Below, one piece after another: positions 4,892-62,257 of a stretch of 64,000 bases of DNA. How positions within the stretch are numbered: the stretch's first letter is position 1; every line of letters begins with the position of its first letter. The notes beneath the pieces are model-generated. The model saw nothing but the letters and a program-made list of their open reading frames with translations, did no database searches and was not told the DNA's origin. The stretch comes from Agathobacter rectalis (GTDB lineage Bacteria; Actinomycetota; Coriobacteriia; Coriobacteriales; QAMH01): contig CAVAPV010000004.1 in NCBI GenBank assembly GCA_963590525.1, positions 1,465 to 65,464 on the forward strand, written 5' to 3'. A program made the translations under genes and the position numbers.

Positions 4892-5653
4892 CTATTTTGC
4901 GCTGGAGTGCTTATGTGGAATCAGCGGCGGAACAAGATCCTTGGGTGCAGGCGGGATAATCCAGGAGATGTTCTCGAGCAGATTGGACCAAACCTTAACC
5001 GCGTTGCCCACCAGCAAAGCAGAGATGATCGTCCCTTCGCGCACATGGACAAGCTGGCCCAAACATAAAAGGCTCACCAGCGCCGCCCCGCACATAAGCG
5101 AGACATCCCATATGACCTTGACGCGATGAAAGGGCAGCTGCGTCTTATAGGCGATAACCACTGGCGATGCATCGCCCGGCGTCATGAGCACGTTTACGCG
5201 CACGCACAGATGCACGCCCAGCCCCAAGACGACGATAGAGACCAGCAAGCACAGCAGCTGGCAGGGATAATTGGGCAGTGGGACTGCGGCAAGCAACGCC
5301 AGCCAAACATCCACAGATGCAGACAACAGCATGAAGAGCGGAATCTGCAGCAACTGCACCGGTCCAAACTCACGGCGCATGAGCGCAATCTCAAGCACGA
5401 AGTACAACGCGTTGAACACAAAGGTGAGCATGCCCATGGTGAGCCAATCCATGCCATGCCTTGCTGCGATCTCTGTGCAGACAGCCGGAAACGTAGAGAT
5501 AGGAGAAGTGCCGGTGCCAGAGTGCTTTGCAAGCGCGATTCCCAAGCCTATGCACAAAACGCCAACTACCATGACGACTGTTCTCAAAGCCAGGTTGGTT
5601 TTTGGGGTGCCAAAGACAGCGGCCCAACGCTCTTTTGCGCTCAATAAGATCAT
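4892..5653 (-). CDS. Polytopic membrane protein, YczE/YitT-like (DUF6198-type)
   Basis: Lies within track ORF 4892..5737. The internal start MILLSAKERW at 5653 is more plausible. It has multiple hydrophobic helices and the motif ..GLGIALAKHSGTGTSPIS... The function is unknown. Confidence 0.55.
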   Translation of the reverse strand: MILLSAKERWAAVFGTPKTNLALRTVVMVVGVLCIGLGIALAKHSGTGTSPISTFPAVCTEIAARHGMDWLTMGMLTFVFNALYFVLEIALMRREFGPVQLLQIPLFMLLSASVDVWLALLAAVPLPNYPCQLLCLLVSIVVLGLGVHLCVRVNVLMTPGDASPVVIAYKTQLPFHRVKVIWDVSLMCGAALVSLLCLGQLVHVREGTIISALLVGNAVKVWSNLLENISWIIPPAPKDLVPPLIPHKHSSAK

Positions 5654-5982
5654 CTTCTTTTTACGAATGGGATAGCAGGCAGCCGACGCGCATGCTCGCT
5701 TTTGCTCATCGAGTGTAGCACTCGCGCGCGCAGTCACAGGCCAAGCAGCGGACAGTGCGCCGTCGTGCGGTACAAATCCGCATCCGCAAGCGAGCTCAAA
5801 AGAAGATATGTGTCCTGAAAACTTCTCTTACTTAAATCGACTGTAGAACATTTGTTTGTTTTATGTTACAACGATAAACACTAGAACAACCCACTGCTTT
5901 ACAAGGAACCTACCCCCATCTTCTTGCCAATAGCTGCAGATTCAAGTTTCTGCAGTGCCTTGCGCAATTGACTAACTGTAGA

Positions 5983-6603
5983 ATGGAGTATACAGTGTCT
6001 TCATTGAGAATCTACGTAACGGATGAGTTTTCAAACTGGCTAAAACGCTTGAGAGACTCCAATGCAAAGGCACGTATCAACTTACGTCTCAGGAGAATCG
6101 AGACAACGGGAAACCTGGGAGATGCCAAGCACGTAGGCGACGGGATTTTGGAACTTAGAATCGACTACGGCCCTGGATACAGGGTGTACTTCTCTCAAAA
6201 AGGCGATGCACTGGTTTTGCTGCTCGTAGGAGGCGATAAATCCTCACAACAGCGAGACATCGCAAAAGCAAAGAAACTAGACAAAGAGTACAAACAGCGC
6301 GAGGTGAAAGGCAATGAAGACAGCAAAGAAATACGATGCAGCAGAATTCTTGGAAACCAAAGAGGACATGTCCGCCTACCTCAATGCTGCTTTAGAGGAC
6401 GGCGATCCCGTATTGCTTTCTGTAGCCCTTGGAGATATCGCCCGCGCACAGGGGATGACACAGCTGGCAAAGGAGACGGGCGTGACTCGCGATGGACTTT
6501 ACAAGGCGCTTTCCCCAACGGGCAATCCCTCATTTGCAACTATCAAAAAGGTCTTAGACGCTTTGGGTATGAAGATCAAAATCACGGCTGCCTAACAACA
6601 TAG
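5983..6603 (+). CDS. RelE/ParE-superfamily addiction-module killer protein (TIGR02683-like) with an abnormal ~100-codon C-terminal extension
   Basis: N-terminal ~100 aa: ..RIYVTDEFSNWLKRLRDSNAKARINLRLRRIETTGNLGDAKHVGDGILELRIDYGPGYRVYFSQKGDALVLLLVGGDKSSQQRDIAKAKKL.. This is the canonical family pattern. The frame then has no stop until 6601-6603. Confidence 0.8.
   Translation: MEYTVSSLRIYVTDEFSNWLKRLRDSNAKARINLRLRRIETTGNLGDAKHVGDGILELRIDYGPGYRVYFSQKGDALVLLLVGGDKSSQQRDIAKAKKLDKEYKQREVKGNEDSKEIRCSRILGNQRGHVRLPQCCFRGRRSRIAFCSPWRYRPRTGDDTAGKGDGRDSRWTLQGAFPNGQSLICNYQKGLRRFGYEDQNHGCLTT
6314..6595 (+). CDS. Addiction-module antidote protein, HigA family HTH (TIGR02684-like)
   Basis: MKTAKKYDAAEFLETKEDMSAYLNAALEDGDPVLLSVALGDIARAQGMTQLAKETGVTRDGLYKALSPTGNPSFATIKKVLDALGMKI. 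An RBS (GAGGTGAAAGG) precedes the ATG. Confidence 0.85.
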   Translation: MKTAKKYDAAEFLETKEDMSAYLNAALEDGDPVLLSVALGDIARAQGMTQLAKETGVTRDGLYKALSPTGNPSFATIKKVLDALGMKIKITAA

Positions 6604-12967: not shown

Positions 12968-14401
12968 TTACTCCAACGGCTGCTTGCGGTAAAAGACCAT
13001 GAGCACAAGCGATATCAGGCAAAACGCCGCAGCGCACATGAGCATCTGGAAGAACCCCTCAGCCCCGGGAGACGCGGCCACAAAACCCAGCAGCAGCGCC
13101 GGGGCAACCGTCGTGCCAATCTGACGCACCAACGCTATGGTTGCGATGGCAGCTCCGCTTTGACTGGGACTGGTGTTCTCGAGCACCATGTAGTTGGTGG
13201 GCGCGCCCATGACAAAGCCCAATCCCAAACCCATGATGCCCAGCCCTATGACAAGCAAGACAGTGCTGGCGTTGCCGAGGCATACCGTGGCGATAAAGAC
13301 AAAGCCCAAAGCCGAGACCAACAGGCCGCCGCTCATAACAGGCTTGGGCCCAAAGCGATCGATGAGCTTACCGCCAAGAGGCGGACCAAACATACTCACC
13401 ACGCCCACGGGCAAGACGTACAAACCGCCCGATCCAGTGGGTGCGTCCATGATGAACTCTGCCACCTCGGGGATGAGCGTCATGGTGATGATCACGCCGC
13501 CAACAAAGAAGCTCACCACCATCGTGATGACGATGGGGCGGCAGCTCAAGTATTCCAGATGAAACACCGGGCTTGGACTCTTGCGCTCTACCAGCGCAAA
13601 AGCGATAAGAGCCACAACAAACCCAGCCGCCGGAGCGAGCACCTGCACAGAGGCAAGCGAAGCCGCCAGGTTTGACACGTCGATATCCTGCAGCGCCATA
13701 AGCAGCAGCAAGACGGTGAGCACCATAAGAATCGAGCCGGGGATATCAAGCGGCTCTTTGGATTGCACACACCTGTTGGGCAGGCACATCAACGCAGCAA
13801 CGATGAGCGCAGCGCACACGGGCAGGGCAAAGTAGAAGAGCGCAGGCCAGTTGGCGCTGCCCACAAGACCCATCACCAAGCTGCCAACAGCGGCTCCCAA
13901 GACGTTGGCGATACCCGCCACAGCCGCCGCGATACCCAGCGCCATGCCGCGTTTTTCTTGCGGGAAGCTTGCGCCTATCTCTGCATTTGCCACGGGAATA
14001 ATGCCGCAGGCACCTACCGCCTGCACCAAACGCCCCGCGAGAAGCAGGCCAAAGCTATCCGCTACGCTAGACAACCCGCACACCAGCGAGCCAACCATAA
14101 ACGTTGCCAAGCAGCCGATAAAGACCGGCTTGCGGCCGCGGATATCGGCCAGCCTGCCCACAACGGGGATGCATGCCGCATAAAACAGCGTGTAGATGTT
14201 GATCATCCAGATGCCAGTGGTGTCGCCCAGGCCAAAATGCTCTTGGATAACCAGACGCACGGGCGAAACCATGCCAACGTACAGGCCACCCAAAGTGAGG
14301 CCCAAAAGATAGATAGCAAAGACAGCGCCCAGTCCGGGCGTTGCTCCAGATGTGTTCTTGTTCACTAAACAGCTCTCTCCAGCAAGTTTTTCTCCAAGCA
14401 A
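12968..14401 (-). CDS. MFS transporter (multi-TMS drug/metabolite exporter type)
   Basis: Contains ..GRLADIRGRKPVF.. (an MFS loop 2-3 motif) and many TM helices. The true start may be GTG 14365, which is preceded by GGAGAGAG. Confidence 0.8.
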   Translation of the reverse strand: MLGEKLAGESCLVNKNTSGATPGLGAVFAIYLLGLTLGGLYVGMVSPVRLVIQEHFGLGDTTGIWMINIYTLFYAACIPVVGRLADIRGRKPVFIGCLATFMVGSLVCGLSSVADSFGLLLAGRLVQAVGACGIIPVANAEIGASFPQEKRGMALGIAAAVAGIANVLGAAVGSLVMGLVGSANWPALFYFALPVCAALIVAALMCLPNRCVQSKEPLDIPGSILMVLTVLLLLMALQDIDVSNLAASLASVQVLAPAAGFVVALIAFALVERKSPSPVFHLEYLSCRPIVITMVVSFFVGGVIITMTLIPEVAEFIMDAPTGSGGLYVLPVGVVSMFGPPLGGKLIDRFGPKPVMSGGLLVSALGFVFIATVCLGNASTVLLVIGLGIMGLGLGFVMGAPTNYMVLENTSPSQSGAAIATIALVRQIGTTVAPALLLGFVAASPGAEGFFQMLMCAAAFCLISLVLMVFYRKQPLE

Positions 14402-31792: not shown

Positions 31793-31869
31793 TGGCACCC
31801 CCAACGGGATTCGAACCCGTGATCTCCGCCGTGAAAGGGCGGCGTCCTAAACCGCTAGACGATGGGGGC
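31793..31869 (-). tRNA. tRNA-Glu (anticodon UUC), CCA encoded
   Basis: Minus strand: GCCCCCATCGTCTAGCGGTTTAGGACGCCGCCCTTTCACGGCGGAGATCACGGGTTCGAATCCCGTTGGGGGTGCCA. The cloverleaf arms pair, and the anticodon loop is CTTTCAC. Confidence 0.95.
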
Positions 31870-47789: not shown

Positions 47790-48083
47790 CCGTACCTCCA
47801 GAGCAATTCAAAAAGGTCCAGTTGGAACTCCTCCCAACTGACCTGGTATTTGACCCCACACTCGCGCACTGGAACTTTTGCTTCGGCCGCGGTAATCCAC
47901 GACCCCACTTAAGGTTCTCTCGCCCCGGGGACCCTTTGTCCCCTATCAAAGGCGGTGCGTCTTACCCCTAGGACGCGCCATGCTCGCCGAGCCGTCAAGC
48001 CCGACTTACGTGGATCCTTTTGACCGCGTCTGCCTTGGACTAAGGAAGCTTATGTCTTCCCGCAACCACAGACTTGGGAGGAG
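47790..48083 (-). promoter_or_regulatory. ~290-nt structured leader with an intrinsic terminator and a long-range anti-terminator pairing (class not recognised)
   Basis: Minus strand: an extended -10-like TGcTACACT lies near 48090-48100. The leader 5' end CUCCUCCCAA (48083-48074) is perfectly complementary to UUGGGAGGAG (47837-47828) inside the terminator GGUCAGUUGG gaggaguu CCAACUGGACC + U5 (47843-47810). Several internal hairpins are present. GUGGGGUC is repeated twice. Confidence 0.5.
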
Positions 48084-53452: not shown

Positions 53453-56400
53453 CTAGCTGTTCTCGACCATCTTCATGAGGACACCGGTCACGTACTCGAG
53501 TTTTTCCTCCTCGACGATACCCGTGTAATCCGTAGTCCAATGCCAACCGGTAGGAGCCACACCATCAAAGCCCATGATGGTCATCGCACGACATCCGGCT
53601 TCCATCGCAGGAGTGGCATCCGTATCACGCCAATCGAGGCGCTCGGCGCTCATCTCGACGCCGTCAAGCTCTTTGCTCGCCTTGCGCACGAGGCTTTGCA
53701 GACGACGATCGCTGCGGCGCGTCTTGTTAAGGCCCTCGTAATCGACAAAGCAGATATCGCCGGCACCGACACCCTCCAAGTTGATGATGAGGGCACCACG
53801 GAGGTCGCTTTTATGCAGCTCGAGGAAGTTGCGCATACCGCGGTTGCCCGCGCTTGATGCACCCAAGGCAACAAACCAGACCTCTTTGTCCAAGAGATCG
53901 GACTCGGTCATAGAGACAACGCTCTCGCGGATCTGAGCAGCGCGGGCACGGACAGCGGCATGGCTGTCTTGAGAGAGCTCCTCGTCAAAGTAGGCGCCGC
54001 CCTTCCAACCGTTGTCATCGTCATTCCAGCCGTCCTCAAAGCCGAGCTCCTCTTCTTTGTTCTTTTTGGAGCCAAACTTGCCAAACAAGCCGCCGACTTT
54101 ATCCATAAAGCCATGCATGCGGCCTGCAGGAGCATCGATCTGAACGTTGACGTTAGGAGCAAAACCGTTGAAGGCGTCGAGATCACTATCGTCAAACTCA
54201 CCTGCCGCCGGCTGGTTGAAATCGTTGGAGATAGACGGGAAAGCACCCGTCAAGCTGGGGAAGGAACTCGTTGCCGCAGGATTGACGTTTGCTGGCGCAT
54301 CCGCAACGGCAGGAAACTCTGTAGACAGCGACGGGTTGACCGCCGGGAAGGCACACGAAACGCTGGGATTGATAAGCGATGCGTTGGCTGCGGGGTCGCC
54401 CTTGGGAGCAAACGGATCAAAAGCCTGGGTTTGCTGCGGAGCCGCCTGAATGGTGTCTTGGTAAGTAGACGACACTGCTGCAGCCTGTCGCGACTGGGCG
54501 AGCATGTCTGCAGCATCCGCATGGCGACCTCCCACCTTGGTAGGTTCGAAATCGTCGCTCACACGGCGAGCCGTAGGCTTTGTGTTGCGCTTGGGCTGGG
54601 CAGCCTTTGCAGCTGCCTTGGCGGCTTTGGCCTCCTCACGGCGCGTCTGCAACGCCTTGAAACTACCGGTAAGCCCTGCGGCCAGGCCAACAGGCTGCTC
54701 ATCAGCGGCCTCTTGAGCAGAAGCGCTGTCATCATCAGCGGCATCGTGGTCTTGCGACAAAAACGCATCGCCAGAATCGACAGCAGCATAGGTGGCAAAG
54801 GCATTGGCAGCATCGTCACCGATGACAGGGATGCGACCGGTAAGGCCAAGACGACCTGTGCCGGTCTTGGCAGGCTCTGCATCGTCATCATGAGCAGCAG
54901 TCATAGAATCTGGGTCGATGTCGTCAACGCTGGCATCGGCAAGCTCGCCCTTGAAGGCAGCGATGGAGATGACGTTGTCAAAAGCAGGCTCGGCAGAAGC
55001 GACGGGGGCATCTGAAGGCTGCTCGTCTGCTAGCGCATCATCGGTTTGGGCGGAATCGGCGGCGATGTCTTCTTGAACATCACAAGAAGCAGGCTCATCG
55101 TTGGCGGCAGCTTGGGCGGATTGAGTTGCAGACGGAACATCCTGCGGGTCAACGCCCAGATCGACCAAGATATCGTCGACAGAGCGGTTTTGGATGGCCT
55201 CGATCATGGCCTTGCCCTCGTCGGGATCCTGGACAGGCTGAGCAGCCGCCTGGCGCTTGGCTTGCAACGCACGAGCCTGCTCGCGAGTCGCGGGCATGTT
55301 GGCGTACTGCGAGCGCACGCCCTCCTGAGCGGCCTCGCCTTCTTGTTCTGCTGTATCAGCCTCGGATGCAGCGGCCTTGGCCTTGGCAGCGGTGTACCAA
55401 GAGGGCAGCGCAGAGGCTGTGGCTTTGGCCTGCGGCTTTGCGACAGACGCAGCAGGAACAACGGGTGTGGCGGCATCGGCGGCAGCTACGGCAGCCTGAG
55501 CTGCGGCATCAACGGCAGCGGCAGCGGGTGCAGCCTCGGCCTCGGCAGCCTGCTCTGTCGCAGGAGCGCAGGCAACAACAGCCGCACTGTCGGCATCCGC
55601 GGCTACGTCAGCGCCATCGACCTCGTCGGCTTGCACGACACCCATTGCAGGGAAGGCAACCGTCTCTCCGGCAGCAGCATTTGCAGCGGCATCTGCAAAG
55701 ACATCGTCTTCGTAGACGATCTGGGCGCCCTCGGGTATGACATCGGCACCTTGGGCTTCTTCAAGGCCGTGGATAACCGGCTCGGCAGACTCTGCATCAA
55801 AAGTGCCGGCAGATTGCTCGGGCAAGAAAGTCTCAACGGGAATCTCGTTGCCATCCTCGTCATAGAGAGGTTCTTCTTGAACGCCCTTGGCATAGCGCTC
55901 GCGCTCGGCCGGGTCCATAAGGCGACGGGCAAGACCCAAGAGCACAGCAAGCGAAGACGCATTGTCGTTTGCGCCGCTCACGTAAGGCATAAAGCGGTTG
56001 ACGACGATGCAGACAGTGCAGACAAACAAGAATGCGCTGATCACCAAGCTGGCGATCCACAGGCCAAAATCGACCGTATCGGGCCAGGGAAGCGGCAGCA
56101 TGCGCACCACAAAGAGCGCGGCCATGGCGATCATGCAGTAGTAGATGCCCTTCTTGAGAACGGGCATGATGTTGACCAGAGCGGGCATGGCCTCGGGCTG
56201 CGCGCGCACGGTATCCACATGCGCGACGACGATGATCTTGCGACGGCGACGCTCGCGCGCTACAGAGCTGGGCACATAGCGAGCAACAACGTTTTGGGAG
56301 ACGCCGCGGGTGAGCGCCTTGGACAAGATGGGGTGGCCGAGCCTCTCGGTAAAGTAAAAGACCATCGAAGCCACAACCAAAAGCAGGCCAAGAGCGTAAA

Positions 56401-56653
56401 ACGTGGTGGACAAACCCGGCACGAACTTTCCAAATCCTGAGAGAACGGTGCCGCAGATAACCAAAAGAAAGCTCAGTGCATACGGCCAGCGCACGCCCGT
56501 GGGCGTGGCAAACTCGTCGATGCCAACCTCGAGGCCCGCCTCTTGCAGGTTCTTCGCAACGTAAAGGGAGGCTTGGTTTTCTTCCTCTGTACTAACAGGG
56601 CGAGGACCGATGTCATCGGCCAGCGCCTGAACATGTTCCATGAGTTCGGCCAT
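53453..56653 (-). CDS. M28-family metallopeptidase-like membrane protein interrupted by TM helices and a very long low-complexity Ala/Asp/Gln-rich region
   Basis: N-terminal ..IIVVAHVDTV.. and ..SGANDNASSLAVLLGLAR... C-terminal ..VWFVALGASSAGNRGMRNF..IINLEGVG... Between them lie four or so TM helices and several hundred low-complexity residues. Confidence 0.65.
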   Translation of the reverse strand: MAELMEHVQALADDIGPRPVSTEEENQASLYVAKNLQEAGLEVGIDEFATPTGVRWPYALSFLLVICGTVLSGFGKFVPGLSTTFYALGLLLVVASMVFYFTERLGHPILSKALTRGVSQNVVARYVPSSVARERRRRKIIVVAHVDTVRAQPEAMPALVNIMPVLKKGIYYCMIAMAALFVVRMLPLPWPDTVDFGLWIASLVISAFLFVCTVCIVVNRFMPYVSGANDNASSLAVLLGLARRLMDPAERERYAKGVQEEPLYDEDGNEIPVETFLPEQSAGTFDAESAEPVIHGLEEAQGADVIPEGAQIVYEDDVFADAAANAAAGETVAFPAMGVVQADEVDGADVAADADSAAVVACAPATEQAAEAEAAPAAAAVDAAAQAAVAAADAATPVVPAASVAKPQAKATASALPSWYTAAKAKAAASEADTAEQEGEAAQEGVRSQYANMPATREQARALQAKRQAAAQPVQDPDEGKAMIEAIQNRSVDDILVDLGVDPQDVPSATQSAQAAANDEPASCDVQEDIAADSAQTDDALADEQPSDAPVASAEPAFDNVISIAAFKGELADASVDDIDPDSMTAAHDDDAEPAKTGTGRLGLTGRIPVIGDDAANAFATYAAVDSGDAFLSQDHDAADDDSASAQEAADEQPVGLAAGLTGSFKALQTRREEAKAAKAAAKAAQPKRNTKPTARRVSDDFEPTKVGGRHADAADMLAQSRQAAAVSSTYQDTIQAAPQQTQAFDPFAPKGDPAANASLINPSVSCAFPAVNPSLSTEFPAVADAPANVNPAATSSFPSLTGAFPSISNDFNQPAAGEFDDSDLDAFNGFAPNVNVQIDAPAGRMHGFMDKVGGLFGKFGSKKNKEEELGFEDGWNDDDNGWKGGAYFDEELSQDSHAAVRARAAQIRESVVSMTESDLLDKEVWFVALGASSAGNRGMRNFLELHKSDLRGALIINLEGVGAGDICFVDYEGLNKTRRSDRRLQSLVRKASKELDGVEMSAERLDWRDTDATPAMEAGCRAMTIMGFDGVAPTGWHWTTDYTGIVEEEKLEYVTGVLMKMVENS

Positions 56654-59688: not shown

Positions 59689-59994
59689 TCCCTTTGTCCT
59701 TAACCGTTGATAATCATGTCTATACATTTGGCCGCGCTGGTTTTGCGATTATGCGCAACGACAGTGCGCAGGCGTCTCAGTCGAAACATCTAGCAGCAAC
59801 CACAACCGGTTTGCGGCTAGACCTTTCGACTTTGCCCGCTTGCTCTTAGCGTTTGGCATGCTGTTGCAAAATCCCGTGCGACCTAGCAAAGTCCTCGTGA
59901 AAAGACAAGCGTTAAGGATACCACGCGCAGACAAACTGTGCCGCATGCGCCAGAAACTCCCAGTAAGCGGGCGATAAAATGCAGCCGTTTTTGC

Positions 59995-60023
59995 TTGCAT
60001 TTAGAACAAATGTTCTGTATTAT
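59995..60023 (+). promoter_or_regulatory. Sigma-70-type promoter with an embedded Cheo-type LexA (SOS) box
   Basis: -35 TTGCAT (59995-60000), 17-nt spacer, -10 TATTAT (60018-60023). The spacer contains AGAAC-AAAT-GTTCT (GAAC 60004-60007, GTTC 60012-60015). ATG of the downstream gene is at 60056. Confidence 0.65.
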
Positions 60024-60055
60024 CTTGGCTCCGCCTTTAGCAATTTGGAGCACAG

Positions 60056-62173
60056 ATGAGCACGACAACACGCAAGACAAACGCAGCAGAACGTCAGATA
60101 AAGCTCGCGCTCTACGTTAAAGCGCACGGCCCCGTCACGCGCTTCCAGATCCAAACAGCTCTTGCCGATTATGCGCCCACTGCCAAAAGAGATGCCGCCG
60201 CACGCAAACGCGCGGAGGCGTCGTCGCGCAGGCGCTTTGAAAGAGACAAGGCTGCTTTGGCGGATGCCGGCATCATATTAGATGCAAACAGCAACGGCTT
60301 GTACTGCATCCTACCCGCAGACAACAAAGACCTAAACGCATTAGAAACAGGCAGCACGCAGGCATCCTTTTTGCGCGTCGCCTGCACCGCTTTGCTCCAA
60401 GACCCAGATTTCTCGGATGGTGCAACCCTAAGACAAGCGATGGCAAAGCTCAGCGACCAACTTGAGATTCCAGATGCGCTGCCCTGGGCAGACCAAGACG
60501 CAATGGACGCTCTCAGGCCCAGCACCGTACCAGAGCAGGGCACCCGGCACAAAGCTAGATGCGCCCTTGCAACCAGCAAGCTGTTGAGCTTTGAATACGC
60601 AGACGCCAGCGGCAAAGTCACCCAAAGAGAGGTAGAGCCCATAGGCTTCTACACGGCAAACGGCCACGAGTACTTGGCGGCATGGGACAGATCCAAGCAG
60701 GCCCGCCGACGTTTTAGGCTCGACAGGATGGGGCATGTCAAAGTCAACGAAAGCGGCCGAGGCAAACAAGACTTTGATCCGCATGAGTTTGATCCAGCGC
60801 AATGGCAGGTTCTGGATTTTCAGATAGGCGACAACGCAATCCAAGCGGTCGTGCGCATATCCCCCTGCGCTCTTTGGCAGGCACGCAATCTATGCAGTGC
60901 ATACGGCAAGATAGCCAAAGAGCCTATCGGCACAGAAACATGGCAGGTAACCTGCGCAGATGTCAAGAAACTTGCGTCTTGGTGCATCGCCAACGGGCCG
61001 GGGCTTGTACCCATCCACCCCCAAGAAGCGGCGGATGCCTATAGGCAGCTCGTAGACGAAGCATCGCTGTGGGCTGCAAACAACGGCGATGGAGACAACG
61101 CCGGCACGCAAACAGAGCAGGCGGATGCAGGCATGCATCTCGCGGGACAAGCTGCTGCAGTTGGTGGTCAAGAAGAGCAGGCAGAGCTCTTTATATATGA
61201 CGAGTCCCAAGAAGCGCAGATACAAGAGAGCCCGCTTGCCCTGGAGCTTGCAGGCTGGGCAGACGAGCTGGCGGCAAAGTATCTTGCAGCAGACGCAAAG
61301 GACGCGAGCTTGGGCAACCAGACGCTTGGAGACGATTCCCTCCTCTTTGCAGTGCTTGCGCTGCTGGAGCAAGCAGGCGCCGTCTCCATCCCTCAGGCAG
61401 CCCAGTTCTTAGACGTGAGCGAGTCCAAGGTCTACAAAGCGCTCGAATCCCTCGCCTTTTGCTACGACGCTGCATGCGACACACGCATAACACTTGGGGA
61501 TGCGGGATGCGCATATGCGTCGCTCGACCAGACCACAGGCTTGCGGCCTTCTTTGACCAAGGCAGAACTAGAGGCTTTAGCAAAGGCGGCAGAGACCTTC
61601 ACATCGGGCTCAATAGTCCGAGCCGTATCGGCAGCATGCCTGCAAGAGCAAGACACGTGCATTCAAATCGATTACTGGAAAGAAGGATCCCCTGCCCCTC
61701 AGCCGCGCGCTATCAACCCGCAAACCATCGTCGTGCGCGACGGACACGCTTATCTGCAGGCATGGTGCTACAGCGCGCAAGCTCAGCGCTTGTTTAGATT
61801 GGACCGGATTATCTCCGTCTGCGATGCAGACGAGATCAAGAGCATAGGCGGCGGGCAAACAAGCGCCCTGCAGGGCAAAGCGCATCGTCAAAGCTCCAGC
61901 GCGGGGCATGCAAACATCACGACGCAGATCAAAGCGCGCGTGGCCTTTGCAGACGGAGTTCCTATTCCATCATGGCCAAGGATCTCCAAACCCAAGAAGC
62001 CCTCAGCAGATGGAGTTGCCTACTACATCGTCCCATGGTTTGGGAGCCTTTGGTTGCCCAAGCAGCTGGCAAGCTACGGCGCAAGCATCACGCGCATTGA
62101 CCCTCATGAGCTTGCGCAAGCAACAGGTGATTATGCCTTGAGTCTCAAAGAGCAGGAGGGCGCAGGGCAATAA
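60056..62173 (+). CDS. Fused double HTH-WYL transcriptional regulator (PafB-PafC-like in a single polypeptide)
   Basis: Two WYL modules: ..LSFEYADASGKVTQREVEPIGFYTANGHEYLAAWDRSKQARRRFRLDRM.. and ..IQIDYWKEGSPAPQPRAINPQTIVVRDGHAYLQAWCYSAQAQRLFRLDRI... The N-terminus is HTH-like (..ERQIKLALYVKAHGPVTRFQIQTAL..). Confidence 0.75.
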   Translation: MSTTTRKTNAAERQIKLALYVKAHGPVTRFQIQTALADYAPTAKRDAAARKRAEASSRRRFERDKAALADAGIILDANSNGLYCILPADNKDLNALETGSTQASFLRVACTALLQDPDFSDGATLRQAMAKLSDQLEIPDALPWADQDAMDALRPSTVPEQGTRHKARCALATSKLLSFEYADASGKVTQREVEPIGFYTANGHEYLAAWDRSKQARRRFRLDRMGHVKVNESGRGKQDFDPHEFDPAQWQVLDFQIGDNAIQAVVRISPCALWQARNLCSAYGKIAKEPIGTETWQVTCADVKKLASWCIANGPGLVPIHPQEAADAYRQLVDEASLWAANNGDGDNAGTQTEQADAGMHLAGQAAAVGGQEEQAELFIYDESQEAQIQESPLALELAGWADELAAKYLAADAKDASLGNQTLGDDSLLFAVLALLEQAGAVSIPQAAQFLDVSESKVYKALESLAFCYDAACDTRITLGDAGCAYASLDQTTGLRPSLTKAELEALAKAAETFTSGSIVRAVSAACLQEQDTCIQIDYWKEGSPAPQPRAINPQTIVVRDGHAYLQAWCYSAQAQRLFRLDRIISVCDADEIKSIGGGQTSALQGKAHRQSSSAGHANITTQIKARVAFADGVPIPSWPRISKPKKPSADGVAYYIVPWFGSLWLPKQLASYGASITRIDPHELAQATGDYALSLKEQEGAGQ

Positions 62174-62257
62174 GGCAACGCAGTCATCAGCTCTCTGCGA
62201 TGTTGCGCGACCTAGCGGGCGAGCAATGCTCGCTAGGTCACATGCGGCGGCGATTGC

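Follow-up and report, generated by a model that had tools for sequence, protein, structure and literature searches.

Actinobacteria respond to DNA damage through 2 arms, PafBC and LexA, which have been described as separate but overlapping in part. LexA boxes of the type GAAC-N4-GTTC are textbook knowledge, and the actinobacterial consensus TCGAAC-N4-GTTCGA and the Cheo box of Bacillus subtilis represent the same type of operator. PafBC recognizes an asymmetric site (tGTCgg-N10-tAnnnT), which is bound via a single helix-turn-helix (HTH) domain; in Mycobacterium smegmatis, R46 and R50 of PafB read the GTC of the promoter, the acidic HTH of PafC contacts sigma domain 4, and mycobacterial PafBC levels stay constant after damage (PMC8635444). 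Control of mycobacterial PafBC is exclusively post-translational. Residues essential for single-stranded DNA (ssDNA) sensing in M. smegmatis are R181, Y196, R208, R211, and R214 of PafB and R201/R204 of PafC (PMC11804915). Naturally fused PafBC proteins are known from Kocuria, Thermobifida, and Arthrobacter, and it was a protein of this fused kind whose crystal structure was solved (PMC6789036). The 2 circuits meet at mycobacterial recA, whose P1 promoter depends on PafBC and whose P2 promoter depends on LexA (PMC8682763). Here, we describe a window of 64 kb of Coriobacteriales DNA (the whole stretch that was analyzed, from contig CAVAPV010000004.1), in which a gene for a 705-amino acid (aa) protein related to PafBC carries a palindrome of the LexA type in its promoter. 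With moderate confidence, we read this arrangement as LexA repressing a PafBC-like activator that would itself be activated by ssDNA.

Read directly from the window, the text around this promoter is TTTTGCTTGCATTTAGAACAAATGTTCTGTATTATCTTGG. The palindrome (AGAACAAATGTTCT) lies inside the 17-nucleotide (nt) spacer between the -35 and -10 hexamers and ends 39 nt upstream of the ATG at 60056, which opens a reading frame spanning 60056-62173. An earlier note on this DNA had given exact coordinates, and the spacer and the length of the protein are as it claimed. Its description of the -35 as good was overstated: TTGCAT agrees with the consensus at only 3 of 6 positions, a consensus promoter scan made no call at the TTGCAT/TATTAT promoter, and the element is weak in the window.

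Conservation of the box was assessed among 21 full-length relatives of the protein (36-98% identity), which together with it make up a family alignment of 22 sequences. All relatives that could be placed came from uncultured Coriobacteriales. Among the assemblies with the gene are CAKUES01, CAYQLX01, JBJEHN01, JBJEHM01, and SFLO01. The contig of one locus (L001, CAVCDT010000003.1) is filed under Akkermansia muciniphila, but its typA/regulator synteny and its 56%-identical protein are like those of Coriobacteriales metagenome-assembled genomes, and it is most likely misbinned. A scan of JGI metagenomes returned a duplicate of locus L010 (L037) and one fragment, and nothing further.

The box was found upstream of all 8 orthologues adjacent to typA, with an invariant core, GAACA.ATGTT.TG, and in 2 arrangements. 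In 5 promoters (those of the window, L001, L002, L003, and L007), which belong to proteins at least 54% identical, the box reads nAGAACA[A/T]ATGTTCTG, lies within the 17-nt spacer, and starts 14 nt before the -10. The hexamers in the 4 relatives of this group are TTGCAA, TTGCCA, or TTGATA (4-5 of 6 consensus positions) for the -35 and TATCAT or TATTAT for the -10. In the remaining 3 promoters (L004-L006; proteins ~45% identical), a perfect TTGACA-16-TATAAT is followed by the box CGAACAAATGTTTTG, which begins 4 nt downstream of the -10 and lies over the site where transcription is expected to start. Both are classical positions for a repressor. Across 150 bp of the 8 aligned promoters, mean column identity was 51%, and of the 15 invariant columns, 13 belonged to the box. 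As the sequence of the box was kept while its register relative to the -10 shifted, selection acts on the box itself and not on promoter spacing. The relaxed motif GAAC-N4-GTT[CT] occurred exactly once in each ~20-kb locus of L001-L007, always at the promoter of the regulator gene, and in ~371 kb of non-redundant Coriobacteriales DNA, the strict motif matched 6 times, 5 of them at such promoters, and the relaxed motif 18 times, 8 of them there.

Counts within the window, taken on their own, are at chance level and speak against an operator: GAAC-N4-GTTC was found once, against 0.83 expected, and at least once in 58 of 100 shuffles. These numbers would suit a palindrome that is a functionless product of chance in an AT-rich spacer. 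That explanation is scarcely credible, however, for a core that has stayed unchanged in 8 promoters while the sequence on either side became nearly random, that has shifted from the spacer to a place after the -10 between groups, and that stands out from a relaxed-motif background of ~1 per 37 kb, and we regard it as effectively refuted. Judged by this comparison, the palindrome at 60003-60016 is almost certainly a real, conserved operator.

The core and spacer of the box (GAACAAATGTTC) match the consensus of Staphylococcus aureus LexA boxes, CGAACAAATGTTCG, base for base. Further S. aureus boxes are those of sbcD (CGAACAAATGTTCT) and lexA (CGAACAAATGTTTG) and a third box, CGAACATATGTTCT (PMC11442139), and the recA operator of Clostridioides difficile, GAGAACAAATGTTTGT, was bound by LexA in surface plasmon resonance (PMC4234289). 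The variants of the box among the orthologues correspond to single validated sites of these 2 species. The features of an SOS box were found here: an inverted repeat with an AT-rich spacer, overlap with the core promoter or start, and retention across orthologues. The proposal of the earlier note, that the palindrome is a LexA-type operator element overlapping the promoter, is thus borne out by the conservation in 8 promoters and by the identity to S. aureus and C. difficile sites. Gram-positive LexA operators share with the box their half-sites, a 4-nt AT-rich spacer (AAAT or ATAT), a tolerated GTTT variant, and a placement overlapping the promoter. They differ in having C...G as outer bases, where the group of the window has A...T, and a gene for a PafBC-type regulator was not found among the described members of LexA regulons.

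Identity to known operators, placement, and functional coherence, and not a demonstrated regulon, are the grounds on which we consider LexA likely to be the protein bound at the box. A single well-supported site does not define a regulon, and the box could also belong to a different homodimeric repressor of this clade, one that has nothing to do with DNA damage and whose site merely resembles that of LexA. We find this rather improbable, as we know of no other characterized bacterial regulator family that uses GAAC-N4-GTTC with an AT-rich spacer, and SOS control would be functionally coherent for a gene in a DNA-damage-sensing family.

The 705-aa protein contains 2 HTH-WYL modules in one chain, as the earlier note had stated. 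Pfam reports 2 WYL stretches (E 1e-29), the first at residues 170-230, along with WCX at residues 261-336 and weak matches to HTH_PafC, HTH_29, and HTH_23 at residues 430-469. The WYL cores of the 2 halves share 47% identity over 38 aa. An AlphaFold model (predicted local distance difference test score, pLDDT, 72.8) shows 2 modules, each of a winged HTH (wHTH), a beta-barrel, and an alpha-beta domain (wHTH/WYL/WCX), with residues 343-392 (pLDDT <50) as a disordered acidic linker. When the family profile was compared with the PDB, the best match was the fused PafBC of Arthrobacter aurescens (6sj9, E 3e-28), which was matched over its 2 halves in collinear order. M. smegmatis PafB (7p5x) aligned to positions 49-228 and PafC to residues 512-672, and DriD, BrxR, and CapW scored far below PafBC. 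Foldseek placed 6sj9_A (E 5e-23) and 6sj9_B (E 5e-21) at the top, with 17-18% identity in the structural alignment, and also returned BrxR and CapW; global template modeling (TM) scores reached only 0.19-0.21, since the model does not pack its domains reliably against each other. Profile search, Foldseek, and residue alignment all support the assignment of the protein as a divergent PafBC homologue with a PafB-like N half and a PafC-like C half.

Conservation extends to the functional residues. R191, Y206, R218, R221, and R224 of the window protein align to R181, Y196, R208, R211, and R214 of M. smegmatis PafB, R581 and R584 (in FRLDRI) align to R201/R204 of PafC, and R59 and R63 align to the promoter-reading R46/R50 of PafB. 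All of these equivalents are invariant in the 22-sequence family. K214 aligns to M. smegmatis R204. The N-terminal wHTH has a net charge of +5 and the C-terminal wHTH one of -7, with the same signs across the family. In comparison with PafBC of M. smegmatis, M. tuberculosis, and A. aurescens (6SJ9), the protein thus has the same 2 wHTH-WYL-WCX modules in the order PafB then PafC, in a single chain as in Arthrobacter, Kocuria, and Thermobifida, with the same ssDNA-binding arginines and tyrosine, the same R46/R50 equivalents, and a basic first and an acidic second HTH. The differences are its strong divergence (the low identity noted above, HTH_PafC below threshold, and no NCBIfam match), an acidic linker of 80 residues against ~20 in A. 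aurescens, and the absence of a pafA/Pup-proteasome neighborhood, a linkage that gave the family its name but is not universal in actinobacteria. By the PafBC sequence criteria that we tested, except for curated thresholds, the protein is PafBC-like, a distant member of the family. We consider it quite probable that it is an ssDNA-sensing regulator of the PafBC-like type.

The opposite charges of the 2 HTHs also bear on which protein reads the box, since a protein with one basic and one acidic HTH would be ill suited to a 2-fold symmetric site. Many WYL regulators are autorepressors, and BrxR and CapW, which act on their own operons via inverted repeats, were among the fold-search results; the box is limited to a subclade of the family, and LexA was not found by tblastn in the window and the loci of its relatives. 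These points would be accommodated if the palindrome were the autoregulatory operator of the WYL regulator, with LexA uninvolved. However, such a symmetric site would have to be bound by a pseudo-heterodimer with +5 and -7 HTHs, whereas PafBC reads an asymmetric GTC via a single HTH, and the arginines that do so are invariant here. In addition, a base-for-base match to validated LexA boxes, spacer included, is unlikely to be a coincidence, and the context is not a defence island. Autoregulation therefore appears unlikely to us, and a protein other than the regulator probably reads the box. A tGTC is absent from the -26 position of the promoter, as read from the sequence.

DriD of Caulobacter crescentus, BrxR, and CapW share the wHTH-WYL-WCX fold with the window protein, and DriD and CapW are activated by ssDNA. 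Unlike this fused pseudo-heterodimer, they are homodimers of ~290-330 aa on symmetric sites. BrxR and CapW are encoded beside defence systems, whereas the gene in the window has housekeeping neighbors (typA, an ABC ATPase gene, an M28 peptidase gene, purB, and a DUF5714 gene).

Several results weigh against LexA control of a PafBC-like gene in this clade. A tblastn search with LexA of Escherichia coli, B. subtilis, and M. tuberculosis and with E. coli RecA gave no match in the window and 37 loci (568 kb), and a literature search returned nothing that links LexA to Coriobacteriia. The box was absent from the subclade in which the regulator gene follows topA (L008/L009, L011, L012), from the subclade in which it is adjacent to purB (L010/L037, L025-L028), and from upstream of split pafB/pafC-like gene pairs (L024, L029). 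The box is thus specific to one lineage, and its 8 occurrences do not count as fully independent. Matches to the mycobacterial PafBC motif in the window were at chance level (11 found, 10.3 expected). As for the protein, HTH_PafC reached 14.4 bits against a cut-off of 32 and WCX 21.4 against 23.9, so that WYL alone passes; NCBIfam gave no match to the 705-aa sequence; and a predicted TM score of 0.44 makes the domain arrangement in the model uncertain. Finally, inducible expression is without precedent for PafBC, given its constant levels in mycobacteria (PMC8635444).

Besides this box, the window has a single box-like site, AGAACATTTGTTTG (5845-5858), which agrees with the box at the regulator promoter in 12 of 14 positions on the opposite strand. 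It lies between a gene for a DUF6198 membrane protein (4892-5737, minus strand) and a gene pair for a Gp49/HigB-like toxin and an HTH antitoxin. We rejected it as a second LexA target, since homologous toxin-antitoxin genes of Olsenella lack the box and have GTATACTACAGTATAC instead, and this too counts against the proposed control.

Part of this evidence would also fit a different role for the protein, in which LexA does bind the box but controls something other than a DNA-damage activator, such as a regulator with another ligand that acts in phage defence or in topA-linked control of topology. The identity of 17-18% to A. aurescens PafBC, the lack of pafA/Pup neighbors, the HTH_PafC score below the Pfam threshold, and the apparent co-transcription with topA in one subclade are all in keeping with such a role. 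Yet the residues that are essential in M. smegmatis PafB for ssDNA binding and promoter reading are all invariant, PafBC is the best match in both profile and fold searches with the PafB-then-PafC order retained, and no defence genes are adjacent. We consider a role outside the DNA-damage response unlikely.

The operator, its conservation and placement, the homology to PafBC, and the conservation of functional residues, all of which are observed, are consistent with a scheme in which LexA would be the binder, the regulator would activate repair genes, and the two would act in series. In undamaged cells, a LexA dimer on the box would occlude RNA polymerase and keep the regulator scarce. Upon DNA damage, RecA-ssDNA filaments would trigger self-cleavage of LexA, and the regulator gene would be derepressed. 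The newly made regulator would then bind ssDNA in its WYL/WCX tunnel and be switched on, with its basic N-terminal HTH reading promoter DNA and its acidic C-terminal HTH contacting sigma, and would turn on a promoter set of its own. Output would thus need both removal of LexA, which would set the amount of regulator, and ssDNA, which would set its activity. Because the site is almost perfectly symmetric, repression may be tight and induction accordingly late. We consider it about as likely as not that, within a single clade of uncultured Coriobacteriales of the gut, the master activator of the response known as LexA-independent is now an SOS gene, so that 2 parallel circuits would have become a two-stage cascade with coherent feed-forward and AND logic.

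Dual control of mycobacterial recA is the documented link between the 2 DNA-damage circuits. There, PafBC acts on the gene for the SOS co-regulator, recA, and the arms work in parallel on shared targets, whereas the link predicted here would run from LexA to the PafBC-like gene. The LexA-type operator also sets the gene apart from mycobacterial PafBC, and because PafBC levels there are constant after damage, LexA control of a PafBC-like gene would be new wiring. In the literature that we searched, no PafBC-type, DriD-type, or other WYL regulator was found under direct LexA control. What would be new here is LexA control of a gene of the PafBC type; operators of this kind are already known, and so is the PafBC fusion, so that the joined halves singled out by the earlier note are not a novelty in view of the natural fusions in Kocuria, Thermobifida, and Arthrobacter (PMC6789036).

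The features of the locus are collected in Table 1. The inverted repeat downstream of the gene lies between the convergent regulator and DUF5714 genes and lacks a T tract, and a terminator scan did not call it.

Table 1. Features of the regulator gene and its promoter, in window coordinates.
Feature	Position	Strand	Basis or remark
-35 hexamer TTGCAT	59995..60000	+	3/6 vs TTGACA, TTG kept
14-bp inverted repeat AGAAC-AAAT-GTTCT, LexA (Cheo/SOS-box) type	60003..60016	no strand	fills the -35/-10 spacer
-10 hexamer TATTAT	60018..60023	+	5/6 consensus positions
Ribosome-binding site GGAG	60047..60050	+	5 nt before ATG; kept in orthologue alignment
N-terminal module, aa 1-342, basic wHTH + WYL + WCX, PafB-like	60056..61081	+	Pfam, alignment
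Acidic low-complexity linker, aa 343-423, predicted disordered	61082..61324	+	pLDDT, net charge -14
C-terminal module, aa 424-705 + stop, acidic wHTH + WYL + WCX-like, PafC-like	61325..62173	+	profile match
Candidate terminator hairpin, inverted repeat GACCTAGCG-N13-CGCTAGGTC	62209..62239	no strand	low confidence, read from sequence

Two other explanations for the box were set aside. A scan against Rfam was empty in the intergenic region, and the box is untranscribed in 5 promoters because it lies upstream of the -10, which counts against a structured RNA. Control of the divergent typA gene through the box was also rejected, since the candidate typA promoter (TGGTATCCT, ~59912-59920, minus strand) lies ~90 bp away. 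At ~59900-59930, the window shares a conserved block, AAAAGACAAGCGTTAAGGATACCACGC, with L001-L003 and L007. Read on the minus strand, this block is GCGTGGTATCCTTAACGC and resembles an extended -10 (TGGTATCCT) for typA; L004-L006 have TGGTAACCT at the corresponding position.

The genomic context of the regulator gene differs between subclades. In the clade that bears the box, genes for typA, the ABC ATPase, and the M28 peptidase lie between purB and the regulator gene. The peptidase gene of the window (53453-56653, minus strand) encodes a protein of 1066 aa, in which the M28 domain is found only at the C terminus (residues 920-1054), behind a long low-complexity middle region rich in Ala, Asp, and Gln; the gene is conserved beside typA in L007 (1060 aa). 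Genes for pafA and the Pup-proteasome were absent from the neighborhoods of the regulator genes. In another subclade (L008/L009, L011, L012; 40-42% identical), the regulator gene starts 6-9 bp after the stop codon of topA, without a promoter of its own, and appears to form an operon with this topoisomerase I gene (L008 7439-11914; L011; L012).

In the purB-adjacent orthologues (L010/L037, L025-L028), a repeat-filled spacer of 360 bp precedes the regulator gene. These spacers (L010 9650-10000, identical in L037; L025 4344-4705; L028 8659-9016) contain repeats of 20-30 nt, in direct and in inverted orientation, that are specific to each lineage. Specifically, GGCCAAATAATCAGCAATTCGA is present twice in direct and twice in inverted orientation in L025, a perfect 22-bp hairpin (TGGCAGAAATCGGACTTTGTTC) is accompanied by GAGCCACAT(A/G)TTT repeats in L028, and three copies of GCCGCACACAAG(T/C)TGGGGCA(C/A)CTTCGATG are found in L010.

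An exhaustive profile search yielded 104 cluster representatives at E up to 1e-30. Many of these are split proteins, of ~336-346 aa for the N half and ~295-311 aa for the C half, and JGI annotates some of the split relatives as "proteasome accessory factor B". L024 and L029 contain overlapping pafB-like/pafC-like gene pairs, and the split pair of L029 has the same radical-SAM neighbor as the fused gene of L028. Split pairs at a syntenic site show that the fused gene was formed from 2 neighboring genes within Coriobacteriia.

Candidate targets of such regulators were also sought. Repair genes were absent from the window, and the box was absent upstream of dinB (L024) and dinG (L029). Within L029, the sequence TGTCAC-N10-TAGGCT (14006-14027) fits the mycobacterial tGTCgg-N10-tAnnnT. 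This match stops 6 nt short of the start codon of a gene for a DinG-like helicase/exonuclease (969 aa), lies 2 kb from the split pafB/pafC-like pair, and is one of only six matches to the pattern beside long reading frames in 371 kb. A leaderless PafBC-type promoter is possible at this position.

Elsewhere in the window, the reading frame of the Gp49/HigB-like toxin (5983-6603) lacks a stop codon where one would be expected, at ~100-110 aa, and continues to 6603, overlapping the antitoxin gene (6314-6595) in a different frame. The stop codon may have been lost, or the toxin gene may be decaying. At 47829-48082 (minus strand), the window has a full-length raiA motif RNA (Rfam RF03072), with 163.8 bits against a gathering score of 101.3, and at 31796-31869 (minus strand) a tRNA.

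Among the relatives compared, only a small clade of uncultured organisms carries the box. With the relatives described here, PafBC-like regulators, both split and fused, are extended to Coriobacteriia, a group of gut anaerobes with unstudied responses to DNA damage, and this bears on how prophages are induced and on mutagenesis in the presence of antibiotics. If LexA does control the PafBC-like gene, the hierarchy of the PafBC and LexA arms can be rewired in evolution, and these bacteria would provide a natural system in which 2 signals, RecA-ssDNA via LexA and free ssDNA via the WYL regulator, are placed in series.

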